From Candidatus Omnitrophota bacterium (GTDB taxonomy: Bacteria; Omnitrophota; Gorgyraeia; Gygaellales; UBA12090), in assembly GCA_030674475.1 (NCBI GenBank), contig JAUSCZ010000014.1, positions 13,938 to 77,937 of the forward strand: DNA of 64,000 nt. Direction: 5' to 3'. Under the pieces are notes generated by a model, which saw only the letters and a list, made by a program, of their open reading frames with translations, was not told the origin of the DNA and did no database searches. Positions 5,398 through 54,472 of this stretch are shown here, one piece after another. The number at the start of each line of letters is the position of its first letter. Within the stretch, counting starts at the first letter, position 1. Made by a program: the position numbers and the translations under genes.

Positions 5398-6630
5398 ATG
5401 AGTTATTTAGAAAAAATAGATCCGCGAATATATAAGATAATCAAGGCGGAAGGCCTGCGCCAGGAAGAAAACTTAGAGTTGATTGCCTCGGAGAACTTTA
5501 CCTCTCGGGGAGTTTTAGAGGCCCAAGGGTCAGTCCTGACCAATAAATACGCTGAAGGCTATCCCCAGCATCGCTGGTATGGCGGCTGTGTTAATGTGGA
5601 TGAGGCGGAGCATCTGGCTATCGAGCGGGCCCGGGAACTTTTTAAGGCCGAGCATGTGAATGTCCAGGCCCATTCCGGAAGCCAGGCCAATATGGCGGTT
5701 TACTTTACCTGCCTTAATGTCGGGGATACTATAATGGCTTTGGATCTTGCCTGCGGAGGGCACCTTACTCACGGTCATCCGCATAATTTCTCCGGCAAGC
5801 TTTATAAAGTGGTTTCCTATGGCGTTGATCCTAAGAGTGAACAATTAGATTATGATAAGATATTAACCTTGGCTAAAGAATGTCATCCCCGCCTGATTTT
5901 AGCCGGGGCCTCGGCTTATCCCCGGATTATTGATTTTAAGAAATTCCGGGCCATTTGTGATAAGGTGGGAGCGTATTTGTTTGTGGATATGGCCCATATC
6001 GCCGGGCTGGTGGCGGCGGGAGTTCACCCCTCTCCGGTTCCTTACGCGGAGTTTGTCAGTTCTACTACCCATAAGACCTTGCGCGGGCCGCGGGGAGGTT
6101 TTGTCCTCTGTAAAAAGGAATTCAGCCGTAAGCTGGATTTAGAGATTTTTCCGGGGATACAGGGCGGGCCTTTGATGCATACCATTGCCGCCAAGGCTGT
6201 GGCTTTTAAAGAAGCCTCAAGCGCCAAGTTTAAAAAGGACCAGAAGCAGACTGTCCGAAATGCCCAGGCCCTTTGCTCGGCCTTAGTCAAAAAAGGATAC
6301 AGGGCGGTTTCCGGAGGAACCGACAATCATCTGTTCTTATTGGATTTAACCTTAAAAGGTGTCAGCGGCAAAGAGGCTCAGGAGAAATTAGACCAGGCTG
6401 GGATTACTGTGAATAAAAACCTGATTCCTTTTGATCCTAAATCTCCAGCCTTAGCCAGCGGAATCCGTATCGGCACGCCCGCGGTTACTACCCGGGGAAT
6501 GAAGGAAAACCAAATGCGCCTCATTGCTGATTTTATTGACCGGGGACTGACCACTTCCGGAGAGAGAAAAATCAGCGAGATTAAAAAAGAGGTTAAGGCC
6601 TTGACGAAGAAATTTCCTTTATATCCTTAA
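5398..6630 (+). CDS. glyA: serine hydroxymethyltransferase
   Basis: SHMT signature throughout (HLTHGHP..., [15 protein letters not shown]-lysine region). ATG at 5398 (MSYLEKIDP) is preferred over the track start. Confidence 0.95.
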
Positions 6631-6654
6631 ATAAGATGAAACAGTTATGTTCCG

Positions 6655-6751
6655 CCGAGGTGTGGCACCAATGAGAATGAAAATAAAGTTTAGATCAGCC
6701 GTGTCGCGTAGCGGTGCGATTTATCGTACCTGTAAGGAGATTCTCAGGTGA
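6655..6751 (+). promoter_or_regulatory. conserved 5' leader with 26-codon uORF (MRMKIKFRSAVSRSGAIYRTCKEILR), copy A, upstream of dCMP deaminase
   Basis: ~80% nt identity to 53225-53321. uORF ATG at 6671, TGA at 6749-6751, overlapping the GTG start (GTGA). Hairpin GTGCGAT-tt-ATCGTAC. Confidence 0.6.
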
Positions 6752-7278
6752 AAAATAAAGAATACAAGCCCAGCCCTTGTAAGCAAGGGCTGGGTAAAGA
6801 TATCCGTCCTGATTGGGATGAATATTTCCTGGGGATAATTCAGGAAATAGCTAAAAGAGCCACCTGTGACCGGGGGAAAGCCGGCTGTGTAATCGTTAAG
6901 GATAAAAGAATCCTGGCTACCGGTTATGTGGGTTCGCCCGCCGGACAGCCGCACTGCGACGAGGCCGGGCATATGATGCGGGATGTGGTCAGCCCTGACG
7001 GCTCAATAAGCAAGCATTGTATCCGGACAATCCACGCCGAGCAGAACGCCATTTGTCAGGCGGCCCGCTTTGGCATACCTTTAGAAGGCTCAACCCTGTA
7101 TTGTAAAATGGAGCCCTGTTTTACCTGCGCCAAGATGATTGTAAACTGTGGAATAAAAAAAGTGGTCTGCTCCGGAAAATACCATGCCGCGCAGTCCAGC
7201 CGCGAATTGTTTAAAAAGGCAAAAGTAGAACTGCGCGTCTTATCTCAAGAGGTAGTAAGATATAAAGATCAGAGATAG
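6748..7278 (+). CDS. dCMP (deoxycytidylate) deaminase, ComEB-like
   Basis: Zinc-binding HAEQNAI ... PCFTCAKMIV cytidine/deoxycytidylate deaminase motifs. GTG start overlaps the stop of the conserved upstream uORF. Confidence 0.85.
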   Translation: MKNKEYKPSPCKQGLGKDIRPDWDEYFLGIIQEIAKRATCDRGKAGCVIVKDKRILATGYVGSPAGQPHCDEAGHMMRDVVSPDGSISKHCIRTIHAEQNAICQAARFGIPLEGSTLYCKMEPCFTCAKMIVNCGIKKVVCSGKYHAAQSSRELFKKAKVELRVLSQEVVRYKDQR

Positions 7279-12243: not shown

Positions 12244-13287
12244 ATGTTACGCTATTTAACCGCGGGAGAGTCGCATGGGGAGGCCTTGATGGCTATTTTG
12301 GAGGGCCTGCCTGGCGGATTAAGGGTGGATAAGGAAAAAATTGATCAGGATTTAGCCCGCAGGCAGGCTGGTTATGGCCGGGGAGCGCGGATGCAGATTG
12401 AAAGAGATAAGGTTGAGGTCCTCTGCGGCTTGTATAAGGGTAAGACCATTGCCAGCCCTGTGGGGATTTTGATTAGGAATAAGGATTTTAGCTTAGATAA
12501 ACAGGCGGAAATTCTTAATCCCCGCCCCGGGCACGCGGATTTGGCCGGACTTTTAAAATATGGTTTTGAGGACGCGCGTCCGGTTTTAGAAAGGGCATCA
12601 GCCCGCTCAACTGCCGCGGCGGTGGCAGTGGGGGCGATAGGTAAGATTTTCTTGAATGAATTTGCTATTGAGATGAGCTCCCGGGTTTTAAATATCGGCG
12701 GTAAAACTACTGAAAAGGAAAGGCATAAGGCGATAGACGCGGCCAAAAGTAAAGGAGACAGCTTAGGCGGTGTATTTGAGTTAATTATTAAGGGCGTGCC
12801 TTGCGGCTTAGGCAGTTATGTTCAATTTGACCGGCGTTTGAATGCCCGCCTGTCTTACGCGCTGATGTCCATTCCCGGAATCAAGGCAGTTGAATTCGGC
12901 CTGGGTTTTGGTTATGGCTATAAATCCGGTTCTCAGACGCACGATGTAATCTGTTATTCTAAAGACAAAGGCTATTACCGCAAAACCAATAATGCCGGAG
13001 GCATCGAAGGCGGGATTTCTAACGGCGAGGATATAGTTATCCGCTGCTGCATGAAGCCGATTGCCACCTTGGCTAAGCCCTTAGCCTCGGTAGATATAAA
13101 AACCAAAAAGGCCGTTCCCGCCTCTATCCAACGCGCCGATACCTGCGCGGTGGAGGCCGCCGGGGTGGTGGCTGAGGCAGTCTCAGCCTTAGAAATCGCT
13201 AACACCTTATTGGAGAAATTCGGCGGGGATTGTTTAGCGGATATTAAACAAGCCTTTCGTGCTTACCTTAAAAGAATTAGTCAATAG
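12244..13287 (+). CDS. aroC: chorismate synthase
   Basis: MLRYLTAGESHGEALMAILEGLPGG and GGISNGE motifs. Confidence 0.95.
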   Translation: MLRYLTAGESHGEALMAILEGLPGGLRVDKEKIDQDLARRQAGYGRGARMQIERDKVEVLCGLYKGKTIASPVGILIRNKDFSLDKQAEILNPRPGHADLAGLLKYGFEDARPVLERASARSTAAAVAVGAIGKIFLNEFAIEMSSRVLNIGGKTTEKERHKAIDAAKSKGDSLGGVFELIIKGVPCGLGSYVQFDRRLNARLSYALMSIPGIKAVEFGLGFGYGYKSGSQTHDVICYSKDKGYYRKTNNAGGIEGGISNGEDIVIRCCMKPIATLAKPLASVDIKTKKAVPASIQRADTCAVEAAGVVAEAVSALEIANTLLEKFGGDCLADIKQAFRAYLKRISQ

Positions 13288-13855
13288 ATGCGTCAATAAA
13301 GACAAGTCCGCCTGGAGTGAGTTTGTCCCGCGGTTTCGTCCCGTAGTTGAGAAGTCTGTCCGCTCCAGGCTCGCCCGCCATAATTTTCCCCACACTACAG
13401 AAGACCTAAAAGATATTACCCAAGGGATATTTCTGGATATCTGGGAAAAGAATAAATTAGCGTTAGTTAAAGATGAAGATAAAATTACCGGCTGGCTGGT
13501 GGTAGTCGCGCAAAATGCCGCGATTGACTATATCCGCTCACAGGCAAAATTTAACCGCCAGCGCTCGGTGTGCGCTAATGAAGATGGCGGAGTAAATGAT
13601 ATCTTGAATATTCTGCCTTCAGAAACCAATCTTTCCCAGGAATTAGCCAAAGGGGACTTAGCTGAAGCAGTAGATGAGTTGATTAACGCCCTGGAGCCGA
13701 GAGAGAAACTGATTCTAAGGCTGAATATCCAGCACAACCAGACTCATAAGGAAATCGCGATTTTTTTGAATATCCCTATTAACACCGTTTCCAGCATTCT
13801 GCGCCGGACAATGATTAGTTTTAGGGAGGATTTGAATAAAAAGGGATATATTTAA
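13259..13855 (+). CDS. ECF-type RNA polymerase sigma factor
   Basis: Sigma-70 region 2 (IFLDIWEK...AIDYIRSQ) and region 4 (LILRLNIQHNQTHKEIAIFLNIPINTVSSILRR). GTG start overlaps the aroC 3' end. Confidence 0.75.
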   Translation: MLTLKELVNRCVNKDKSAWSEFVPRFRPVVEKSVRSRLARHNFPHTTEDLKDITQGIFLDIWEKNKLALVKDEDKITGWLVVVAQNAAIDYIRSQAKFNRQRSVCANEDGGVNDILNILPSETNLSQELAKGDLAEAVDELINALEPREKLILRLNIQHNQTHKEIAIFLNIPINTVSSILRRTMISFREDLNKKGYI

Positions 13856-13904
13856 AATATTTTTGCACGAAAACAGCCGATTCTTACGTCTTAATAAGTA
13901 GGGA
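13854..13904 (+). promoter_or_regulatory. promoter-like cassette, copy 1 (duplicated upstream of two genes)
   Basis: AAAATATTTTTGCACGAAAACAGCCGATTCTTACGTCTTAATAAGTAGGGA is ~90% identical to 14347-14397. Both copies keep the same TGCAC-N18-CGTCT spacing and the same distance to the ATG. Confidence 0.5.
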
Positions 13905-13910
13905 GGGAAT

Positions 13911-14369
13911 ATGCCGGATTTAACCAGGATAATCAAAAATGGCTTTAGCCGCACCTCATGCGGCCTTAAAAAGACTCCGCAGTGCCCGTCAGAGCTGGAG
14001 CTGGGTAAATATTTGGATAAGTCCGCCTCTGTCAGCCAGAAAGACAGGATTGAAAGACATCTGGCGAACTGCGGCTATTGCTTAGATTTATTGGTTACGG
14101 CTAAAAAGGCGCTGAAAGATTCCCCAAAAAAGCCGAATGTTCTCCAGGCCCTAAATCAGCAGAAGTGGTTTATCTTAAGTATGCTGAGCTTAGGAATGTC
14201 CTTCTTTATCAAAAGGTATTTCTTCCAATTCCTTACCCTGAGCCTCATCTTTGGCCTTAAATGGGCCCTGAGCGCCGAAGGCAGCCGGAACCTGGTAATG
14301 ATTTTCCGTAGTCTGGGCCAAAAAGATACGGCGGATAGCAAAAAAGAAAATATTTTTGCACGAAAATAG
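13911..14369 (+). CDS. zf-HC2 putative anti-sigma factor with TM segment
   Basis: HLANCGYCLDLL zinc-finger anti-sigma motif, then a hydrophobic segment. Immediately downstream of the ECF sigma. Confidence 0.6.
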   Translation: MPDLTRIIKNGFSRTSCGLKKTPQCPSELELGKYLDKSASVSQKDRIERHLANCGYCLDLLVTAKKALKDSPKKPNVLQALNQQKWFILSMLSLGMSFFIKRYFFQFLTLSLIFGLKWALSAEGSRNLVMIFRSLGQKDTADSKKENIFARK

Positions 14370-14397
14370 CCATTTCTTACGTCTATATAAGTAAGGA
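14347..14397 (+). promoter_or_regulatory. promoter-like cassette, copy 2
   Basis: AAAATATTTTTGCACGAAAATAGCCATTTCTTACGTCTATATAAGTAAGGA. Overlaps the 3' end of the anti-sigma ORF and precedes a 28-codon ORF and spoVG. Confidence 0.5.
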
Positions 14398-14503
14398 CAG
14401 AAATTATGGCAGGAAAGGCTGTAATTGGGATGTCCGAAACTTATCCCGCCGCTTTGCTTCGGAAAACGAAGCTGGGGGGTGCATTTGAGTAGGAGGTGGC
14501 AAG

Positions 14504-18708: not shown

Positions 18709-18757
18709 CCTGCCTGCCGGCAGGCAGGGTTTGGCTTCCTATAGCCAAAGCCATAAG
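18709..18757. repeat. composite REP-like element: CCTGCCTGCCGGCAGGCAGG palindrome plus GGTTTGGCTTCC-N3-AGCCAAAGCCATAAG element
   Basis: Perfect 20-bp palindrome at 18709-18728, with a second palindromic unit directly after it. Both families recur elsewhere in the window. Confidence 0.7.
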
Positions 18758-30131: not shown

Positions 30132-30163
30132 GTAGGGGCGAACCTGCGTGTTCGCCCGAATAA
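30132..30163. repeat. GTAG-headed REP-like hairpin (GTAGGGGCGAAC-CTGCGT-GTTCGCCC-GAATAA)
   Basis: Near-identical copy at 42221-42252 (1-nt difference in the loop). Both sit directly after stop codons. Confidence 0.7.
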
Positions 30164-30463: not shown

Positions 30464-30853
30464 ATGAGAAAAGAAGTTTTAGATAATGAATTGGCTAAAA
30501 TAGAAAAGATTAGCAAAGAGTTTGATGTGAAAAAAGTATTTTTGTTTGGTTCGTGTCTCGAAAGCGTTGAGACGGCTAATGATATTGATATAGCAGTAGA
30601 GGGAATTAAGGCCAAGGACTTTTTTAAATACTATGGAAGAATCTCTATGGCTACAGATAATGAAGTTGACTTAGTTGATTTGGATGATATTAGAGAGCAT
30701 TTCCAGAAAAGAATTTTATCTAAAGGGAGGATTATATATGAAAGAGCAGTAAGAGCGATACAGGTGGATGATTTTATTTTAGATTCTTTGAAATTTCCAG
30801 TGGGTAAGATAGAAATCCTCCCCTTACCAAGGGGAGGCGGGGAGGGGTTATAA
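30464..30853 (+). CDS. minimal nucleotidyltransferase (MntA/Pol-beta superfamily), orphan
   Basis: FLFGSCLESVETANDIDIAV (GS-X9-DxD) motif. Its C-terminal 12 codons read into palindromic repeat copy 1. No HEPN partner follows. Confidence 0.6.
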   Translation: MRKEVLDNELAKIEKISKEFDVKKVFLFGSCLESVETANDIDIAVEGIKAKDFFKYYGRISMATDNEVDLVDLDDIREHFQKRILSKGRIIYERAVRAIQVDDFILDSLKFPVGKIEILPLPRGGGEGL

Positions 30854-31350
30854 CCAAGGCATTTAATAGACCAGAGCAAAAACTAAAGCGCAAGGCATTG
30901 AGACGCAATATGCCCTTAGCTGAAGTTATTTTATGGAGTAGATTAAAAGGCAAACAATTAGAAGGCTGTAAATTCAGAAGGCAGTATTTGAAATCCTCCC
31001 CTTAACAAGGGGAGGCGGGGTGGGGTCATTAAGCATTTTGTCATAGATTTTTATTCTACTGAATTAAGATTAGCCATAGAACTTGACGGAGAGTCTCACT
31101 ATGTCCAGGACGCGCCGTTGGCGGATAGGGAGAGACAAAACCAAATTAAGGTATTCGATGTTCAATTCCTGAGGTTTACGAACCAGGATATATATGAAAA
31201 TTTAGAAGGGGTATTATTAAAGATAGTTGAACAGATTAAACAAATTACCTCCCCTACCCCTCCTTGGTAAGGAGGGGATAAGAAATCTTTCTATTAACAA
31301 ATGAGGTAAGAAATCCTCCCCTTACCAAGGGGAGGCGGGGAGGGTAAGAA
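30813..31350. repeat. cluster of four ~40-bp palindromic repeats (AAATCCTCCCCTTACCAAGGGGAGGCGGGGAGGG), three direct and one inverted
   Basis: Copies at 30813-30853, 30991-31033, 31247-31286 (inverted) and 31311-31350. Copy 2 splits a DUF559 ORF and brings in a TAA stop. Confidence 0.75.
30868..31270 (+). pseudogene. DUF559 (Vsr-like endonuclease domain) gene disrupted by a palindromic repeat
   Basis: N-part RRNMPLAEVILWSRLKGKQLEGCKFRRQY. C-part VIDFYSTELRLAIELDGESHY...VQFLRFTNQDIYENLEGVL. The two parts match consecutive DUF559 blocks and are separated by the 43-nt repeat at 30991-31033. Confidence 0.65.
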
Positions 31351-31467: not shown

Positions 31468-32544
31468 ATGAAAATACTTATCGTTGAGGTCAATTGGCTG
31501 GGGGATGTGTTGTTTTCTACCCCGGCTATTAAGGCGTTGCGTAATAAATTTCCGGACAGCCGTATCAGTTGTCTGATTGTCCCCAGGGTAAAAGAGGTGT
31601 TAGAGAATAATCCCTCTATCGATGAGCTTATTATTAATGATGAGGAGGGGCTGCATAAAGGATTTTTGGGCGGGTTGAAATTAGTTGAAGCCTTAAGAGG
31701 CAAGAATTTTGATTTGGCGGTTTTTTTTCACCGTTCTTTCTCCCGGGCAGTAATCGCTTATCTGGCCGGAATTCCCCGGAGGCTGGGTTACGTTACCTGG
31801 AAAAGAAGATTCCTGCTGACCGAAGCCATACCAATGCCTAAAAAAGACAGCCTGCATCGGGTGGACCATTATCTAAACATAGTTAAACCCTTAGGATGCG
31901 CTGTGGATGATAGGCAATATGAATTTTTCTTGAGCGAAGAAGATGAAAAGTTCGCTGAGGATTTCTGGAGCAGGGAAGGCTTAAAAAAAGACGATTGGAT
32001 AGTTTGTTTGAATCCGGGAGGAAATTGGGGCCCTAAGCGCTGGCCAAAAGAGAATTTTGCTTTACTTGCTGACTGGCTTATCCGCGAGTATCACGCCAGG
32101 ATTATTTTTAGCGGTTCAAAAGCTGACACTTTGCTGATAGAAGAAATAACCCGGATGATGGAGCAAAAGGAATTTATCATATCCGCCGGATATACCAACC
32201 TTAAAGCTGCCGGGGCTATTTTTAAGAAGGCGAATTTGACGATTTCCGGGGATTCCGGGCCTTTGCATATTGCCGCCAGTGTCGGGGCAAATGTCCTGGC
32301 CTTATTCGGCCCGACCTCGCCCGCGATCACCGGGCCGATTGGTAAAGGCAGGATCGTGGTTATTCACAAGCCAGAGGGCGGTGGTTTGGCTTCCCCCAGC
32401 CAAAGCCATAAGCCGCTGGAGTGCCGGGTTCCTTGTTATGACGCGGCCTGTAATGATAACCGCTGTATGCGGGAAATTAAAGTTGAAGATGTATTGGCAG
32501 AGGTGAAGAAATTAGCGGAGGATGCTCACAGAAATGAAGTTTAG
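31468..32544 (+). CDS. ADP-heptose:LPS heptosyltransferase (GT9) with a 14-aa in-frame repeat insertion
   Basis: MKILIVEVNWLGDVLFSTPAIKAL and LHIAASVGANVLALFGPTSP motifs. The extra EGGGLASPSQSHKP is absent from the two paralogous GT9 C-termini in this window. Confidence 0.85.
   Translation: MKILIVEVNWLGDVLFSTPAIKALRNKFPDSRISCLIVPRVKEVLENNPSIDELIINDEEGLHKGFLGGLKLVEALRGKNFDLAVFFHRSFSRAVIAYLAGIPRRLGYVTWKRRFLLTEAIPMPKKDSLHRVDHYLNIVKPLGCAVDDRQYEFFLSEEDEKFAEDFWSREGLKKDDWIVCLNPGGNWGPKRWPKENFALLADWLIREYHARIIFSGSKADTLLIEEITRMMEQKEFIISAGYTNLKAAGAIFKKANLTISGDSGPLHIAASVGANVLALFGPTSPAITGPIGKGRIVVIHKPEGGGLASPSQSHKPLECRVPCYDAACNDNRCMREIKVEDVLAEVKKLAEDAHRNEV
32365..32415. repeat. GGTTTGGCTTCC-N3-AGCCAAAGCCATAAGCC element inserted in-frame in the heptosyltransferase CDS
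   Basis: 9-nt direct repeats CACAAGCCA / CATAAGCCG lie exactly 42 nt apart (HKP...HKP in protein). The same element occurs intergenically at 18728-18757 and as a tandem at 38721-38825. Confidence 0.65.
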
Positions 32545-38720: not shown

Positions 38721-38825
38721 CAAGCCAAAGCCATAAGCCAGAGGGCGATGGTTTGCATTCCATATAAGCAAAGCCATAAGCCAGAGGGCGATGGTTTGCA
38801 TTCCATATAAGCAAAGCCATAAGCC
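38721..38825. repeat. ~44-bp tandem repeat x2.4 (AAGCAAAGCCATAAGCCAGAGGGCGATGGTTTGCATTCCATAT)
   Basis: Two full units (38721-38765, 38766-38808) and a partial third. The unit contains the AGCCAAAGCCATAAGCC core shared with the in-CDS insertion at 32365-32415. Followed by TTGACA at 38827. Confidence 0.8.
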
Positions 38826-42220: not shown

Positions 42221-42283
42221 GTAGGGGCGAACCTGTGTGTTCGCCCGAATAACAGCGGGCAGACACGTAGGTCTGCCCCTACA
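42221..42283. repeat. nested REP-like element: GTAGGGGCGAAC-loop-GTTCGCCC hairpin plus GGGCAGAC-acgtag-GTCTGCCCCTAC hairpin
   Basis: First hairpin is the twin of 30132-30163. The whole unit is bracketed by GTAGGGGC...GCCCCTAC. Confidence 0.7.
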
Positions 42284-51103: not shown

Positions 51104-53200
51104 ATGAATTTATTCTGGCTGGCGCCTTTAGGTTCGTGTTTGGCTTTGGGTTTTGTGGTGTATCTGATTTTTGTGGTGATTTTGCCTAAAGACCCCGGTA
51201 CGGATAAAATGCAGGAGATTGCCCGCTATGTCTCCGAGGGGGCTTATGCCTATTTGAAAAGGCAGTATTCAATAGTGGGGATATTTTTCGCGGTAGTTTT
51301 TTGTATACTTTTGTGGATGGTTCACCAGGGGTATTTGGTTATTTTTGTGCCTTTTGCTTTTTTAAGCGGCGGGTTTTTCTCCGGCCTTTCCGGATTTATC
51401 GGGATGACTATCGCCACTAAGGCCTCCAATCGCACTACCTCAGCCGCCCGGATCAGCTTGAATTCGGCCTTGAGGGTAGCCTTCTCCGCCGGAAGCGTGA
51501 TGGGTTTTACCGTGGTGGGTTTGGGGTTATTAGACTTAGTCATCTGGTATGGTATTTTAGATTGGTATTACGCTACTCATCCTATTGTTATAGGGATGGA
51601 TAAAATTTCCGCCATTACTTCAACTATGCTTTGTTTTGGAATGGGGGCATCCAGCCAGGCCCTTTTTGCCCGGGTAGGGGGAGGAATATTCACTAAGGCC
51701 GCGGATGTGGGGGCCGATCTTGTGGGTAAGGTTGAGGCCGGCATTCCGGAGGATGATCCCAGAAACCCGGCGGTAATTGCCGATAATGTCGGGGATAATG
51801 TGGGAGATGTGGCCGGGATGGGGGCGGACCTTTATGAGTCTTATGTGGGCTCAATTGTGGCTACCAGCGCTCTCGGCGTGGCCGCCGGCCTGGGGCTGGC
51901 CGGGGTAATCGTGCCGATGGCTATGGCCGGATTAGGAGTGGTGGCTTCAATAATCGGAACATTCTTTGTTAATACCAAAGAGGATGCCTCCCAGGGAACA
52001 CTGTTAGCTGCCTTAAGGAGAGGGGTGCTGGTCAGCGCGGGCATCATTGTGGTTACTTCGTTTTTTCTGGTGAAGTGGACCCTGGGCAGCCATAATTTAG
52101 GGTTTTACTGGTCAATTATTTTTGGGCTTTTGGCCGGGATAATCATTGGCATAGTTACTGAATATTATACCTCATCCGGCTTTAAGCCGACCAAACAGAT
52201 TGCCGAGTCGGCCTTAACCGGACCGGCCACGGTAATTATCAGCGGTATTGCCGTGGGTATGCTTTCTACCCTGGTGCCGGTAATAGTGGTGGGTATAGCC
52301 ATATTGGCTTCTTTTTATGTGTCCGGAGGAGCGGTTAATTTTAATTCCGGATTATACGGGATAGCCATATCCGCCGTGGGTATGCTCTCTACCTTGGGGA
52401 TTACCCTGGCTACCGATGCCTATGGCCCGATAGCCGATAATGCCGGAGGGAATGCCCAGATGTCTGGTCAGCCGCCGGAGGTCAGGGCCAGGACCGATGC
52501 CCTGGATGCCTTGGGTAATACTACTGCCGCTACCGGAAAAGGCTTTGCCATCGGTTCAGCCGCTCTTACCGCCCTGGCCTTGATTGCCGCCTATAAGGAT
52601 CAGGTTTTGATTTTAGGCAAAGATTTAAAGTTGGATTTGATGGATCCTAGGATTTTAGTCGGGCTCTTTATCGGCGGGATGCTTCCTTATTTATTCTGCT
52701 CTTTAACTATGCAGGCAGTAGGCCGGGCCGCGGGTAAGATTGTGGTGGAGGTCAGGAGGCAGTTTAAGGAAATTAAGGGTTTATTTGAGGGCACGGCCAA
52801 GGCCGATTATGTCCGCTGTGTGGGCATAGCCACCTCCGCCGCCCAAAAAGAGATGATTCTGCCTTCATTGCTGGCGGTGTTGGCTCCCATCATTGTGGGT
52901 ATGCTTATCGGACTGGAGGCTGAGGTCGGGCTCCTGGTCGGGGCTCTGGTTTCGGGATTTGTCTTGGCAGTGATGATGGCCAATTCCGGGGGAGCCTGGG
53001 ATAACGCCAAGAAATATATTGAGGAAGGAAATCTCGGGGGCAAAGGCTCCCTGCCGCATAAGGCGGCAGTGGTCGGAGATACCGTGGGCGACCCTTTCAA
53101 AGACACCGCCGGCCCTTCTTTAAATATCCTGATTAAACTGATGTCTATGGTCTCTATAGTCTTTGCCGGTTTTATCCTCAAGAACACCTTGATGAAGTAG
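51104..53200 (+). CDS. hppA: membrane-bound proton-translocating pyrophosphatase
   Basis: Multi-TM protein with [14 protein letters not shown] and [15 protein letters not shown] signatures. Confidence 0.9.
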
Positions 53201-53224
53201 TTAAAATTAAACAATCATGCCCGC

Positions 53225-53321
53225 CAAAGGCGTGACACCAATGAACATGAAAATAGAGTTTGGGTTATCCGTATTCCGTAGCGGCGCGATTTATCGCGCT
53301 GGAGAGGAGATTTTCAGGTGA
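53225..53321 (+). promoter_or_regulatory. conserved 5' leader with 26-codon uORF (MNMKIEFGLSVFRSGAIYRAGEEIFR), copy B, upstream of aminotransferase
   Basis: Same 81-nt uORF length. TGA overlaps the GTG start at 53318. Hairpin GCGCGAT-tt-ATCGCGC shows compensatory changes relative to copy A. Confidence 0.6.
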
Positions 53322-54472
53322 AAGATATTATTGCTAAGAAAGTCCGGGATATGCGGCCATCGGGGATAAGGGCGTTTTTTGACCTGGTGCTGGGGATGAA
53401 GGATGTCATATCCTTAGGAGTGGGCGAACCGGATTTTGCCACTCCCTGGAGCATTCGGGAATCGGCGATATTTTCCCTGGAGCAGGGTTGGACTAGTTAT
53501 ACCTCAAATAAAGGTTTGATGAAGTTAAGGATGGGTATCTCGCGTTTTCTTAAAAACCATCACGGCCTTGCTTATAATCCTGAGGATGAAATTTTAGTAA
53601 CCGTGGGGGTGAGCGAGGCCCTGGATTTGGCGGCGCGCTCAATTTTAAATCCCGGGGATAAGGTTTTGATTCCTGAACCCTGTTATGTTTCTTATGGCCC
53701 GGTATGCGCTTTGGCCGGAGGAGAGCCGGTGTATATCTCAACCGCCAAGTCTAATTTTAAGCTCAGGCCGGCGGATATCGAGAAAAACTGTGATGCTAAA
53801 ACTAAGGCTATAATTTTTAATTATCCGGCCAATCCTACGGGAGTTTCTTATACCAAAAAGGAATTAGAGGAAATCAAAAAGGTAATTCTAAAACATAAAC
53901 TGATTATGATTAGTGATGAGGTGTATGATGAGCTGACCTATGATTTTAAACATACGCCTTTCGCCTCGCTATCCGGAGCAAAAAACAATACCCTTTATCT
54001 GAATGGTTTTTCTAAAAGCTACGCCATGACCGGCTGGCGGGTGGGATATGCCTGTGGCCCTCGCGAGATAATCGCGGCAATGACCAAGATTCATCAGTAT
54101 ACCATTATGTGCGTGTCCACAATTAGTCAGATGGCATCCTGCGAGGCTTTGCAAGGCGCCGGTAAAGCGGTTAGTGAAATGAGGCGGGAATATCAGAGGA
54201 GGAGAGAGCTTGTGGTGGATGGCCTAAACCGGATGGGGCTAAAGTGCCTTAAGCCCCAGGGGGCCTTTTACGCCTTCGCCGGCATAGAAAGTACCGGCTT
54301 AAGCTCAATGGATTTTTGCTCCAGGCTCCTTAAGGAGCAGAAGGTGGCGGTGGTTCCGGGAAATGCCTTTGGAGATTCGGGAGAAGGCTATATCCGTATT
54401 TCCTACGCCTCAAGCTTAGAGAATCTGCGCGAGGCCTTAAGTAGAATGGCTGTGTTCTTAAAGAAGTTATAA
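53318..54472 (+). CDS. class I/II PLP-dependent aminotransferase (aspartate aminotransferase-like)
   Basis: NPTG, SFSKSYAMTGWRVGY (PLP lysine) motifs. GTG start overlaps the conserved uORF stop. Confidence 0.85.
   Translation: MKDIIAKKVRDMRPSGIRAFFDLVLGMKDVISLGVGEPDFATPWSIRESAIFSLEQGWTSYTSNKGLMKLRMGISRFLKNHHGLAYNPEDEILVTVGVSEALDLAARSILNPGDKVLIPEPCYVSYGPVCALAGGEPVYISTAKSNFKLRPADIEKNCDAKTKAIIFNYPANPTGVSYTKKELEEIKKVILKHKLIMISDEVYDELTYDFKHTPFASLSGAKNNTLYLNGFSKSYAMTGWRVGYACGPREIIAAMTKIHQYTIMCVSTISQMASCEALQGAGKAVSEMRREYQRRRELVVDGLNRMGLKCLKPQGAFYAFAGIESTGLSSMDFCSRLLKEQKVAVVPGNAFGDSGEGYIRISYASSLENLREALSRMAVFLKKL

Follow-up and report, generated by a model that had tools for sequence, protein, structure and literature searches.

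A short repeat that probably moves into ATGAAA gene starts of Candidatus Omnitrophota, bringing its own ribosome-binding site and start codon

In the 64-kb stretch of Candidatus Omnitrophota DNA analysed here (the window), two genes of unrelated function, one for a dCMP deaminase and the other for a class-I aminotransferase, are preceded by similar leaders. This raises the question of whether the leaders represent a shared regulatory device or whether they reached these genes by some other route. An earlier note on the window favored the first answer, describing positions 6655-6751 and 53225-53321 as ~80% identical and as either a leader-peptide attenuator or a riboswitch-like element. Comparison of the window with itself extends the similarity to a gapless direct repeat of 126 nt (6632-6757 and 53202-53327, 75% identical), which is among the longest direct repeats of the window. 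The duplication is real, although the measured identity of the shorter segments is lower than claimed (75/97, or 77%). The flanks are indeed unrelated, 100 nt on each side being 29-31% identical, which is the random level. Both 81-nt upstream ORFs (uORFs), at 6671-6751 and 53241-53321, translate exactly as quoted, in both copies the TGA of the uORF overlaps the GTG start of the downstream gene, and a GGAG Shine-Dalgarno (SD) sequence is present in each. What had been overlooked is a second ATGAAA that opens the repeat at 6636-6641 (ATTAAA at 53206-53211), just 3' of the upstream stop codon. A search with nhmmer and the family profile described below finds only these two copies in the window, which we call A and B. 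Their features are as follows.

Copy A, before the dCMP deaminase gene:
6636-6641, + strand: old (native) start and Lys codon, ATGAAA, the 5' direct repeat; 5 nt past the glyA stop TAA (6628-6630) and contiguous in the empty-site ortholog L032
6642-6753, + strand: inserted segment of 112 nt, from C to GTGAAA, delimited by the filled/empty alignment; nhmmer match 6636-6754, E=5e-35
6646-6667, + strand: 5' GC-rich hairpin P0, degenerate; -4.4 kcal/mol, z=0.2 when folded separately (L017: -20.4, z=-5.3)
6636-6674, + strand: ORF0, 12 codons read from the old start and ending in AATGA, where its TGA (6672-6674) and the uORF ATG (6671-6673) overlap
6666-6688, + strand: conserved block 1, CACCAATGAGAATGAAAATAAAG, with the stop/start overlap and an internal ATGAAA, from the family alignment
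6671-6751, + strand: uORF1, 26 codons, with its TGA over the new GTG start, from ORF geometry
6708-6730, + strand: GTAG tag and REP-like hairpin GGTGCGA-TTTA-TCGTACC, a helix 100% paired across the family
6734-6739, + strand: SD AAGGAG, 8 nt before the new start; the GGAG/GGGA block is invariant in the family
6748-6753, + strand: 3' direct repeat formed by the new start GTG and AAA; codons 1 and 2 of the dCMP deaminase gene (6748-7278)

Copy B, before the aminotransferase gene:
53206-53211, + strand: decayed old start ATTAAA, for which the orthologous copy L008/L023 has ATGAAA; 5 nt past the TAG stop (53198-53200) of the H+-pyrophosphatase gene
53212-53323, + strand: inserted segment of 112 nt; nhmmer match 53207-53324, E=1e-34; aminotransferase orthologs start natively with ATGAAAGATATT and without the element
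53236-53258, + strand: conserved block 1, CACCAATGAACATGAAAATAGAG, unchanged relative to the orthologous copy in L023
53241-53321, + strand: uORF1, 26 codons, with its TGA over the GTG start, from ORF geometry
53278-53300, + strand: GTAG tag and hairpin GGCGCGA-TTTA-TCGCGCT, from the sequence and the family alignment
53304-53309, + strand: SD GAGGAG, from the sequence
53318-53323, + strand: 3' direct repeat formed by the new start GTG and AAA; the class-I aminotransferase gene (53318-54472) begins here

The origin of the leaders is best illustrated by relatives that have the same gene junctions without them. At the glyA–dCMP deaminase junction the element is absent from a relative (loci L032-L035) with 89% protein identity and the same rpiB-glyA-comEB-nrdR order. 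Its empty site is one contiguous stretch, TAA-GCTAAAGAG-ATGAAA-AATAAAGA, with a 9-nt spacer, and the filled site of the window, with a 5-nt spacer, reads TAA-ATAAG-ATGAAA[CAGTT...CTCAGGTGAAA]AATAAAGA, the 3' end of the insert being also given as CAGGTGAAA. Since the element lies between direct repeats, the insertion boundary of copy A could equally sit 5-6 nt further left. The leuB–asd junction provides the second comparison: in L041 it is empty, with ATGAAA located 15 nt past the leuB stop and followed directly by AAGAAAGC, and in L001 it is filled, ATGAAA[C...CAGATGAAA]AAGAAGGC. At the aminotransferase locus L028 reads TTGTTATGAAAGATATT and lacks the element, and most of the 120 orthologs listed start with MK(D/N) exactly at the position of the window gene. 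Thus, in all three comparisons (L032, L041 and L028 against the window and L001) the gene natively began with ATGAAA, and a duplicated (R)TGAAA brackets the element. Together with the presence or absence of the element at the same junction, this duplication indicates the behavior of an insertion element and not of an ancestral regulatory leader. The idea of a shared cis-regulatory leader is supported in part: the two regions do share, beyond chance, an element that supplies the SD and start codon of unrelated genes. The two flanking repeats also differ in codon usage. Among 14 copies the 5' RTGAAA has ATG in 11, GTG in two and a decayed codon in one, which corresponds to native start-codon usage, whereas the 3' RTGAAA has GTG in 11 and ATG in three. 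With ATG present at each of the three empty sites, it follows that the element provides the new start with its first base. The direction of each event, presumed to be insertion rather than precise deletion between the direct repeats, is assigned by parsimony rather than from a dated tree.

The copies come from one scan of genomes with a hairpin-centred pattern and one scan of metagenomes with a pattern centred on the 5' block. The genome scan returned three true copies in Candidatus Omnitrophota MAGs, namely UBA12090 (two contigs) and E14_maxbin.253. The metagenome scan returned 22 loci before duplicate removal; after it, the set comprises 16 distinct sequences at 14 loci, from Omnitrophota MAGs and several metagenomes. 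As these patterns were exact, the invariance of ACCAATGA..ATGA.AATA and of GTAGCGG is partly built in, and copies that lack those motifs or lie away from gene starts would escape the search. At all 14 loci the element is co-oriented with the downstream gene, each time a different one, and fused to its RTGAAA start. The genes include those for dCMP deaminase and aminotransferase, asd, a GlmM-like and a glycosyltransferase-like gene, and genes for lipoproteins and for membrane proteins, with no common pathway. The earlier note had proposed searching relatives, listing the downstream genes and checking conservation of the uORF ATG; the 14 loci exclude a private duplication, the genes prove to be unrelated and every family copy has an ATG-initiated ORF. 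All copies are single, with no tandem arrays, and are sharply delimited by RTGAAAC on the 5' side and by RTGAAA on the 3' side, the RTG of the latter being the downstream start. Of nine copies checked, six have the stop codon of the upstream gene within 10 nt of their 5' end, and in L010/L026 the TGA of that stop runs into the old start as GTGA, an arrangement usual for coupled genes. L011 and L014, which precede different genes, have identical 5' halves with a unique +3 hairpin variant and different middles, so that L011 is a mosaic of a 5' half common with L014 and a middle common with L018; we regard this sharing as signs of recent spread and exchange, judging from the sequences. The 5'-truncated copies L007 and L025 and the remnants L031 and L042 retain the 3' RBS module. 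In viral contigs the hairpin pattern had no matches, and the 3' RBS module alone, which is a generic strong RBS, had 67, none of them with the element. A Chloroflexia contig from the genome scan carries the GTAG-tagged hairpin only. The repeat family is undescribed in the literature searched.

From 5' to 3' the element consists of the old start ATGAAA, P0, block 1, 16 variable nt, the GTAG tag with its hairpin, a variable linker, AAGGAG, 8 nt and RTG-AAA. P0, with each copy folded separately, ranges from -20 kcal/mol in L017 to none in L001, L009 and copy A (z about 0), a range that reads as decay. Block 1, CACCAATGAG.ATGA.AATAGAG, holds both the AATGA stop/start overlap and a third ATGAAA. 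The tagged hairpin has the form GTAG plus 7 bp closed by a TTTA loop, and all full copies fit GTAG-C-GGYGCGA-TTTA-TCGCRCY. The same tagged hairpin occurs alone in L005, and other GTAG hairpins are present in the window at 30132 and 42221. Terminal inverted repeats (TIRs) are absent, the best end-to-end inverted match scoring 5 against a shuffle mean of 5.5, and the element is therefore not a classical miniature element (MITE).

The ORF geometry depends on the length of the element. In eight of the 14 copies the distance between the old and the new start is 113 or 116 nt (2 mod 3), which places the ORF of the old start in the uORF frame; in five of them this ORF spans the whole element (38-39 codons) to the TGA over the new start, and in three it ends 17 nt upstream of the new start, just before the SD. 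In the 112-nt class (copy A and L003) the old-start ORF stops at the TGA of CCAATGA, over the uORF ATG, and uORF1 reaches the overlapping TGA. In total, a chain of ORFs leads from the old start or an internal ATG to the overlapping TGA, or to 17 nt short of it, in 12 of the 14 copies, and is broken in L001 and L016. The coupled short ORF reported for the window is thus recurrent, uORF1 ending on RTGA in 9/14 copies and the ORF from the old start in 5. The overlapping TGA itself is intrinsic to the target, A-TGA-AA. About seven indel events are found in the family and six of them shift the frame; the relay ORF is not strictly maintained, and the SD alone is probably sufficient once the element is fixed. 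The proposed constraint on the peptide finds no support. Variable columns number 12, 13 and 13 at codon positions 1, 2 and 3, and most substitutions are non-synonymous. Five of the 14 copies, including L008, the ortholog of copy B, stop at codon 21, and a 1-nt deletion breaks two more; L016 stops at codon 8 and L001 is frameshifted. Judged from these sequences, the uORF peptide is not under selection.

Based on these observations, we consider it likely that the two leaders are copies of a mobile element from one Candidatus Omnitrophota lineage, which is short (~112-116 nt), non-coding and non-autonomous, similar to the mycobacterial MIRUs and distinct from riboswitches and attenuators. Family membership, insertion polymorphism, direct repeats and ORF geometry can all be seen directly in the copies compared. 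From them we infer translation through the element followed by re-initiation, in the following way. The element would integrate in a single orientation at the pentanucleotide TGAAA of an ATG-AAA gene start, leaving the native start codon at its 5' edge, still beside the stop of the upstream gene. Its last base, usually G, would join the second TGAAA to rebuild a GTG-AAA start with AAGGAG 8 nt ahead. Ribosomes initiating at the old start would then enter the element, where in the 113/116-nt class their frame would merge with that of the uORF and end either on the target TGA (A-TGA-AA), overlapping the new start by 4 nt, or 17 nt ahead of that start. In the 112-nt class, copy A included, they would stop at CCAATGA and might restart at the overlapping ATG. 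With such a relay, insertion would barely disturb expression of the target gene.

As to the enzyme that moves the element, it is tempting to think of a single-strand HUH enzyme of the RAYT or IS200/IS605 TnpA type, since the hairpin is GTAG-tagged, further GTAG hairpins occur in the window, TIRs are lacking, the pentanucleotide at the left flank is constant and there is a single orientation. This can be offered only as a tentative guess. The ends are explained just as well by cut-and-paste transposition that duplicates 5 bp of target. No transposase domain was detected in the 20 small ORFs of the window, nor is a transposase family listed among the Pfam assignments of the genes called in L028-L043.

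An unlikely variant adds a role for the host. It would combine site-specific single-strand (HUH/RAYT-like) or otherwise undescribed machinery acting at TGAAA starts, an evolved translational relay by which insertions into essential genes stay phenotypically silent, and co-option of the conserved hairpin and the A-rich block by the host as a leader that puts scattered genes under common translational control. The orthologous copies in the window and L023 differ at 8 positions in 122 nt, against about 18 expected, with 4-fold sites of the flanking genes differing by 13-17%. No difference falls into block 1, the hairpin or the SD. This low divergence suggests, at the level of sequence comparison, either host-level constraint or gene conversion, and a purely selfish model leaves it unaccounted for; the mosaic copies L011, L014 and L018 support gene conversion. 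A similar estimate from L002 and L009 was discarded as uninformative, because 4-fold divergence is 31% over whole genes but 7-10% in the local flanks.

The same data speak for an unlikely alternative, in which a structured mRNA leader acting in cis, be it a riboswitch, an RNA thermometer or an operator for some global RNA-binding protein, holds a set of genes under common control of translation, and mobility is merely how this regulon was assembled. Between the orthologs, none of the 61 nt that make up CACCAATGA..AATAGAG, the GTAG hairpin and the SD region has changed, where about 9 changes would be expected from 4-fold sites. The hairpin is fully paired in all copies with G-U intermediates, and the folds of the two window copies are slightly more stable than those of shuffled sequences (z about -2). 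In addition, UGAAAAU of block 1 in copy A has its complement, AUUUUCA, in the stretch that separates SD and start, according to pair counts and self-complementarity; this 7-bp pairing, which could mask the spacer between SD and start, is kept in 98% of cases, with one-sided changes only. In the fold predicted by RNAalifold, P0 and the GTAG hairpin are accompanied by pairings in which SD and start are masked. However, covariation does not exceed that of shuffles, either in pairs or in pair types. Over the whole fold of 14 sequences, 95.5% of cells are paired and 4 pairs are changed on both sides, against 3.1 in shuffles, with 163 of 500 shuffles reaching 4 in what is a shallow family. The hairpin itself is present in both window copies as the earlier note had described, but its compensatory change amounts to one U-A to C-G exchange plus G-U pairs; the exchange is confined to one subfamily, with U-G and G-U intermediates. 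The RNA-structure constraint that had been deduced from it is not supported on this basis. A structured RNA is nonetheless plausible as a model, with part of the sequence invariance imposed by the search patterns. Rfam likewise offers no match over the whole window at the gathering threshold or over the element copies of the 14 further loci, and at E<=10 positions 6500-6900 give noise only (E 2.6-6.2). This agrees with the impression that no known riboswitch family is involved. The riboswitch or attenuator reading proposed along with it is not supported, given the missing Rfam match at E<=10, the lack of a conserved terminator and the functionally unrelated downstream genes. Further evidence against a regulatory leader is that those genes share no pathway, that close relatives have or lack the element at the same junction and that the remnants L031 and L042 precede, and still serve, the same genes without the hairpin. 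The mosaic copies, moreover, make gene conversion an alternative source of the conservation.

Three other pairings were considered and rejected. A long-range helix, CACC..UGAG with CUCA..GGUG, derived from the two window copies, is dropped by the family, whose AGUG and GAUG start variants are uncompensated. A helix closing the element between the 5' UGAAA and UUUCA shows no compensation and has mismatches in copies A and B and in L017 (by inspection). Finally, a helix masking the start, UCAUC/GGUGA, has 4 double changes that all belong to one subfamily, along with 4 broken cells.

It is quite improbable that the element is a mobile promoter cassette, comparable to Neisseria REP2, the Borrelia IR repeats or the 'putative mobile promoters', which would create a new transcription unit with its own promoter, RBS and start codon. 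The architecture does resemble that of REP2 in having no TIRs, two internal stem-loops and an RBS with a start codon right before genes (PMC3184786), and copy B contains a weak -35/-10 match (GTGACA-16-TAGAGT, 9/12). Yet copy A has no sigma-70-like site, and in most copies the -10-like hexamer, TAGAGC, misses the final T. Most copies, besides, lie within operons right after a stop codon, and separate canonical promoters are found upstream in L007 (TGTCAA-17-TATAAT) and in L002/L009. A sigma-54 reading of TGGCAC was dismissed by eye.

Still less probable is that an intergenic leader, with no dedicated mobility, was simply copied inside one genome by segmental duplication or gene conversion. The presence of just two copies in the 64-kb window and the mosaic copies would agree with it, but 14 loci have the same sharp edges on a 5-6-nt direct repeat between unrelated flanks, three independent empty sites exist, and homologous recombination requires more than six nucleotides of homology. 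The weakest reading, an attenuator whose 26-codon peptide senses an amino acid or an antibiotic, is largely refuted: an ATG-initiated ORF in every copy and a stop overlapping the gene start in 9/14 speak for it, but against it stand the lack of codon periodicity with mostly non-synonymous substitutions, premature stops or frameshifts in 7/14 copies, no run of regulatory codons, no conserved terminator or antiterminator (the sole terminator-like match, in copy A, lacks a U tract and is missing in copy B) and no SD ahead of the uORF ATG in copies A and B.

Among known systems, the mycobacterial MIRUs seem by analogy to be the closest to the mobile element that we propose. In the summaries of the work of Supply et al. 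(1997) given in PMC12548453 and PMC3184786, they are short non-coding intergenic repeats of operons, co-oriented with the flanking genes, that insert at start codons and contain an internal ORF with a 4-nt overlap on the downstream start, so that insertion is tolerated through translational coupling. Empty and filled sites and short direct repeats have been described as well (PMC3184786). The Omnitrophota element shares the dispersed, co-oriented arrangement, the empty and filled sites, the insertion at start codons and the ORF with a 4-nt overlap. Unlike MIRUs, with which it is likened by description, it belongs to a different phylum, is longer (~112 nt) and occurs in single copies without VNTR arrays. 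It also has a strong SD, rebuilds a mostly GTG start on a fixed TGAAA, carries the GTAG-tagged hairpin and has often lost its coupling ORF to decay. In the literature searched, no repeats other than MIRUs are described that insert at start codons and carry a coupled ORF.

The repeats named REP2 in Neisseria and IR in Borrelia measure roughly 100-150 bp, have no TIRs, form two internal stem-loops and provide an RBS and an initiation codon to many unrelated genes (PMC3184786). The Omnitrophota element is like them in size, in the absence of TIRs, in the two stem-loops, in its position before unrelated genes and in supplying the RBS and start. They have a promoter, however, and none was detected in the Omnitrophota element; nor is a target duplication at the start codon or an old start at the 5' edge described for them. 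A GTAG tag beside a hairpin (PMC3733652) is typical of the GTAG-tagged REPs and BIMEs associated with RAYT transposases (PMC3733652, PMC2817692, PMC3479197). Here, too, GTAG is located directly 5' of a GC-rich hairpin, of 7 bp, with G-T/G-U tolerated, and TIRs are lacking. In contrast to the 20-40-nt REP palindromes, the Omnitrophota element is a composite of ~112 nt with a fixed insertion motif and a gene-directed orientation, and no RAYT gene was seen in the loci examined.

Palindrome-associated elements (PATEs) derived from IS200/IS605 have no TIRs, carry subterminal hairpins and show a constant pentanucleotide just 5' of the left end and a strict orientation. The Omnitrophota element agrees in lacking TIRs, in its subterminal hairpins, in the constant 4-5-nt target at its left flank and in its one orientation. 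It differs in that its two hairpins are dissimilar, the left one being poorly conserved, and in that a plain 5-bp target duplication fits as well; no autonomous TnpA/TnpB element that could act as partner was seen in the loci examined. Classical bacterial MITEs, such as Correia, ERIC and RUP, are small, non-autonomous and multi-copy, display presence/absence polymorphism and influence the expression of neighbouring genes. These traits, along with target-site duplication and the absence of coding capacity, are common to them and the Omnitrophota element, whereas the latter has no TIRs, keeps one orientation and targets start codons in place of TA or random sites.

A gene is normally inactivated when something inserts into its start codon. 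The element nevertheless repeatedly enters the starts of housekeeping genes (asd, the GlmM-like gene, dCMP deaminase, aminotransferase), bringing its own RBS and start codon. As for the uORF, its coupling is real but belongs, in our reading, to a MIRU-like mobile insertion and not to an attenuator or riboswitch. A second case of the MIRU strategy in an uncultivated phylum suggests that the strategy may be convergent. For annotation, the element means start codons shifted from ATG to GTG, spurious small ORFs and N-terminal fusions such as P0244, and in riboswitch scans it can mimic a conserved regulatory leader. For synthetic biology, it represents a natural compact cassette of bicistronic design. 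Finally, in other relatives the same glyA-comEB junction is occupied by unrelated repeat-rich inserts, of 181 nt in L036/L040 and of 274 nt in L038; such junctions are general landing sites for repeats.

Apart from the probably mobile repeat of about 112 nt that occupies ATGAAA gene starts (hereafter, the element), the window carries several other repeats:

30132-30163 and 42221-42280: two REP-like hairpins that carry a GTAG tag, GTAGGGGCGAACCTG(C/T)GTGTTCGCCC
42253-42280: inverted partner GGGCAGACACGTAGGTCTGCCCCTAC of the GTAG hairpin, making a BIME-like pair with the hairpin preceding it
30812-30851, 30990-31029 and 31310-31349: three copies of a 40-nt hairpin repeat GAAATCCTCCCCTTACCAAGGGGAGGCGGGGAGGGG, 88-100% identical and lying within 540 nt
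38726-38811: two identical copies, in tandem, of the 43-nt unit CAAAGCCATAAGCCAGAGGGCGATGGTTTGCATTCCATATAAG
13854-13909 and 14347-14402: 56-nt repeat in two 86% identical copies, with the ECF-promoter-like motif GAAAAC...CGTCT

Given the hairpins at 30132-30163 and 42221-42280, the genome hosts GTAG repeat families. The element's own hairpin (GTAG plus GGCGCGA-TTTA-TCGCGCC) is also found in a Chloroflexia metagenome-assembled genome (L005, 4455-4490), where some 30 of 34 nt are identical to the element copy preceding the aminotransferase gene. It stands there without the remainder of the element, on a GC-rich contig from another phylum, and its presence could reflect a common REP class, transfer or mis-binning.

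Counting ORFs that reach 70 aa or more, the window has 66, and 64 of them lie on the forward strand; at least four further ORFs (487, 11478, 31468 and 48404) have an ATGAAA start without the element. At the junction of glyA and the dCMP deaminase gene, close relatives have unrelated repeat-rich inserts (L036, 1304-1484; L040, 9820-10000; L038, 2227-2500), accompanied by a different N-terminus, MIKHQ... or MIKQK.... Several repeat families appear to use gene junctions of these genomes as hot spots. In the window, the dCMP deaminase gene has a 30-nt in-frame insertion (about 6765-6794) in the part encoding the protein's N-terminal tail, and this insertion contains a perfect 26-nt palindrome, CCCAGCCCTTGTAAGCAAGGGCTGGG, at 6769-6794; the ortholog at the empty site, L032, lacks the palindrome. 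The palindrome recalls the Rickettsia RPEs, which are coding palindromes.

In two loci carrying the element, L002 (minus strand) and L009, the stretch about 60-190 nt upstream of it holds a canonical TTGACA-17-TATATA promoter and, after that, a conserved 5' UTR in which AGCCACGG(A/G)A occurs as a direct repeat, all ahead of a lipoprotein-like gene; this promoter-5' UTR region had no match in Rfam. In two other loci of relatives, L042 (9900-10000, asd) and L031 (1-41, aminotransferase), the 3' module GGAGATTTTCAGGTGAAA is the sole surviving part of the element, and is joined to other repeats of the TATAGTCTATGG type or to AT-rich filler where the GTAG hairpin would stand. The database protein P0244 (367 aa) represents the uORF of the element fused in frame to Asd (MSMKIELRSSVSRSVRFIAPVRDFQMKKKAKFNV...); therefore, the element causes either N-terminal mis-annotation or real extensions.

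As for the remaining repeats, one 56-nt copy is located 3' of an ECF-type sigma factor gene (13259-13855) and 5' of a zf-HC2 anti-sigma-like ORF, and the other precedes SpoVG (14504). The three 40-nt hairpins adjoin a nucleotidyltransferase ORF (30464-30853), and shorter relatives of the 43-nt unit occur at 18728 and 32359-32412.
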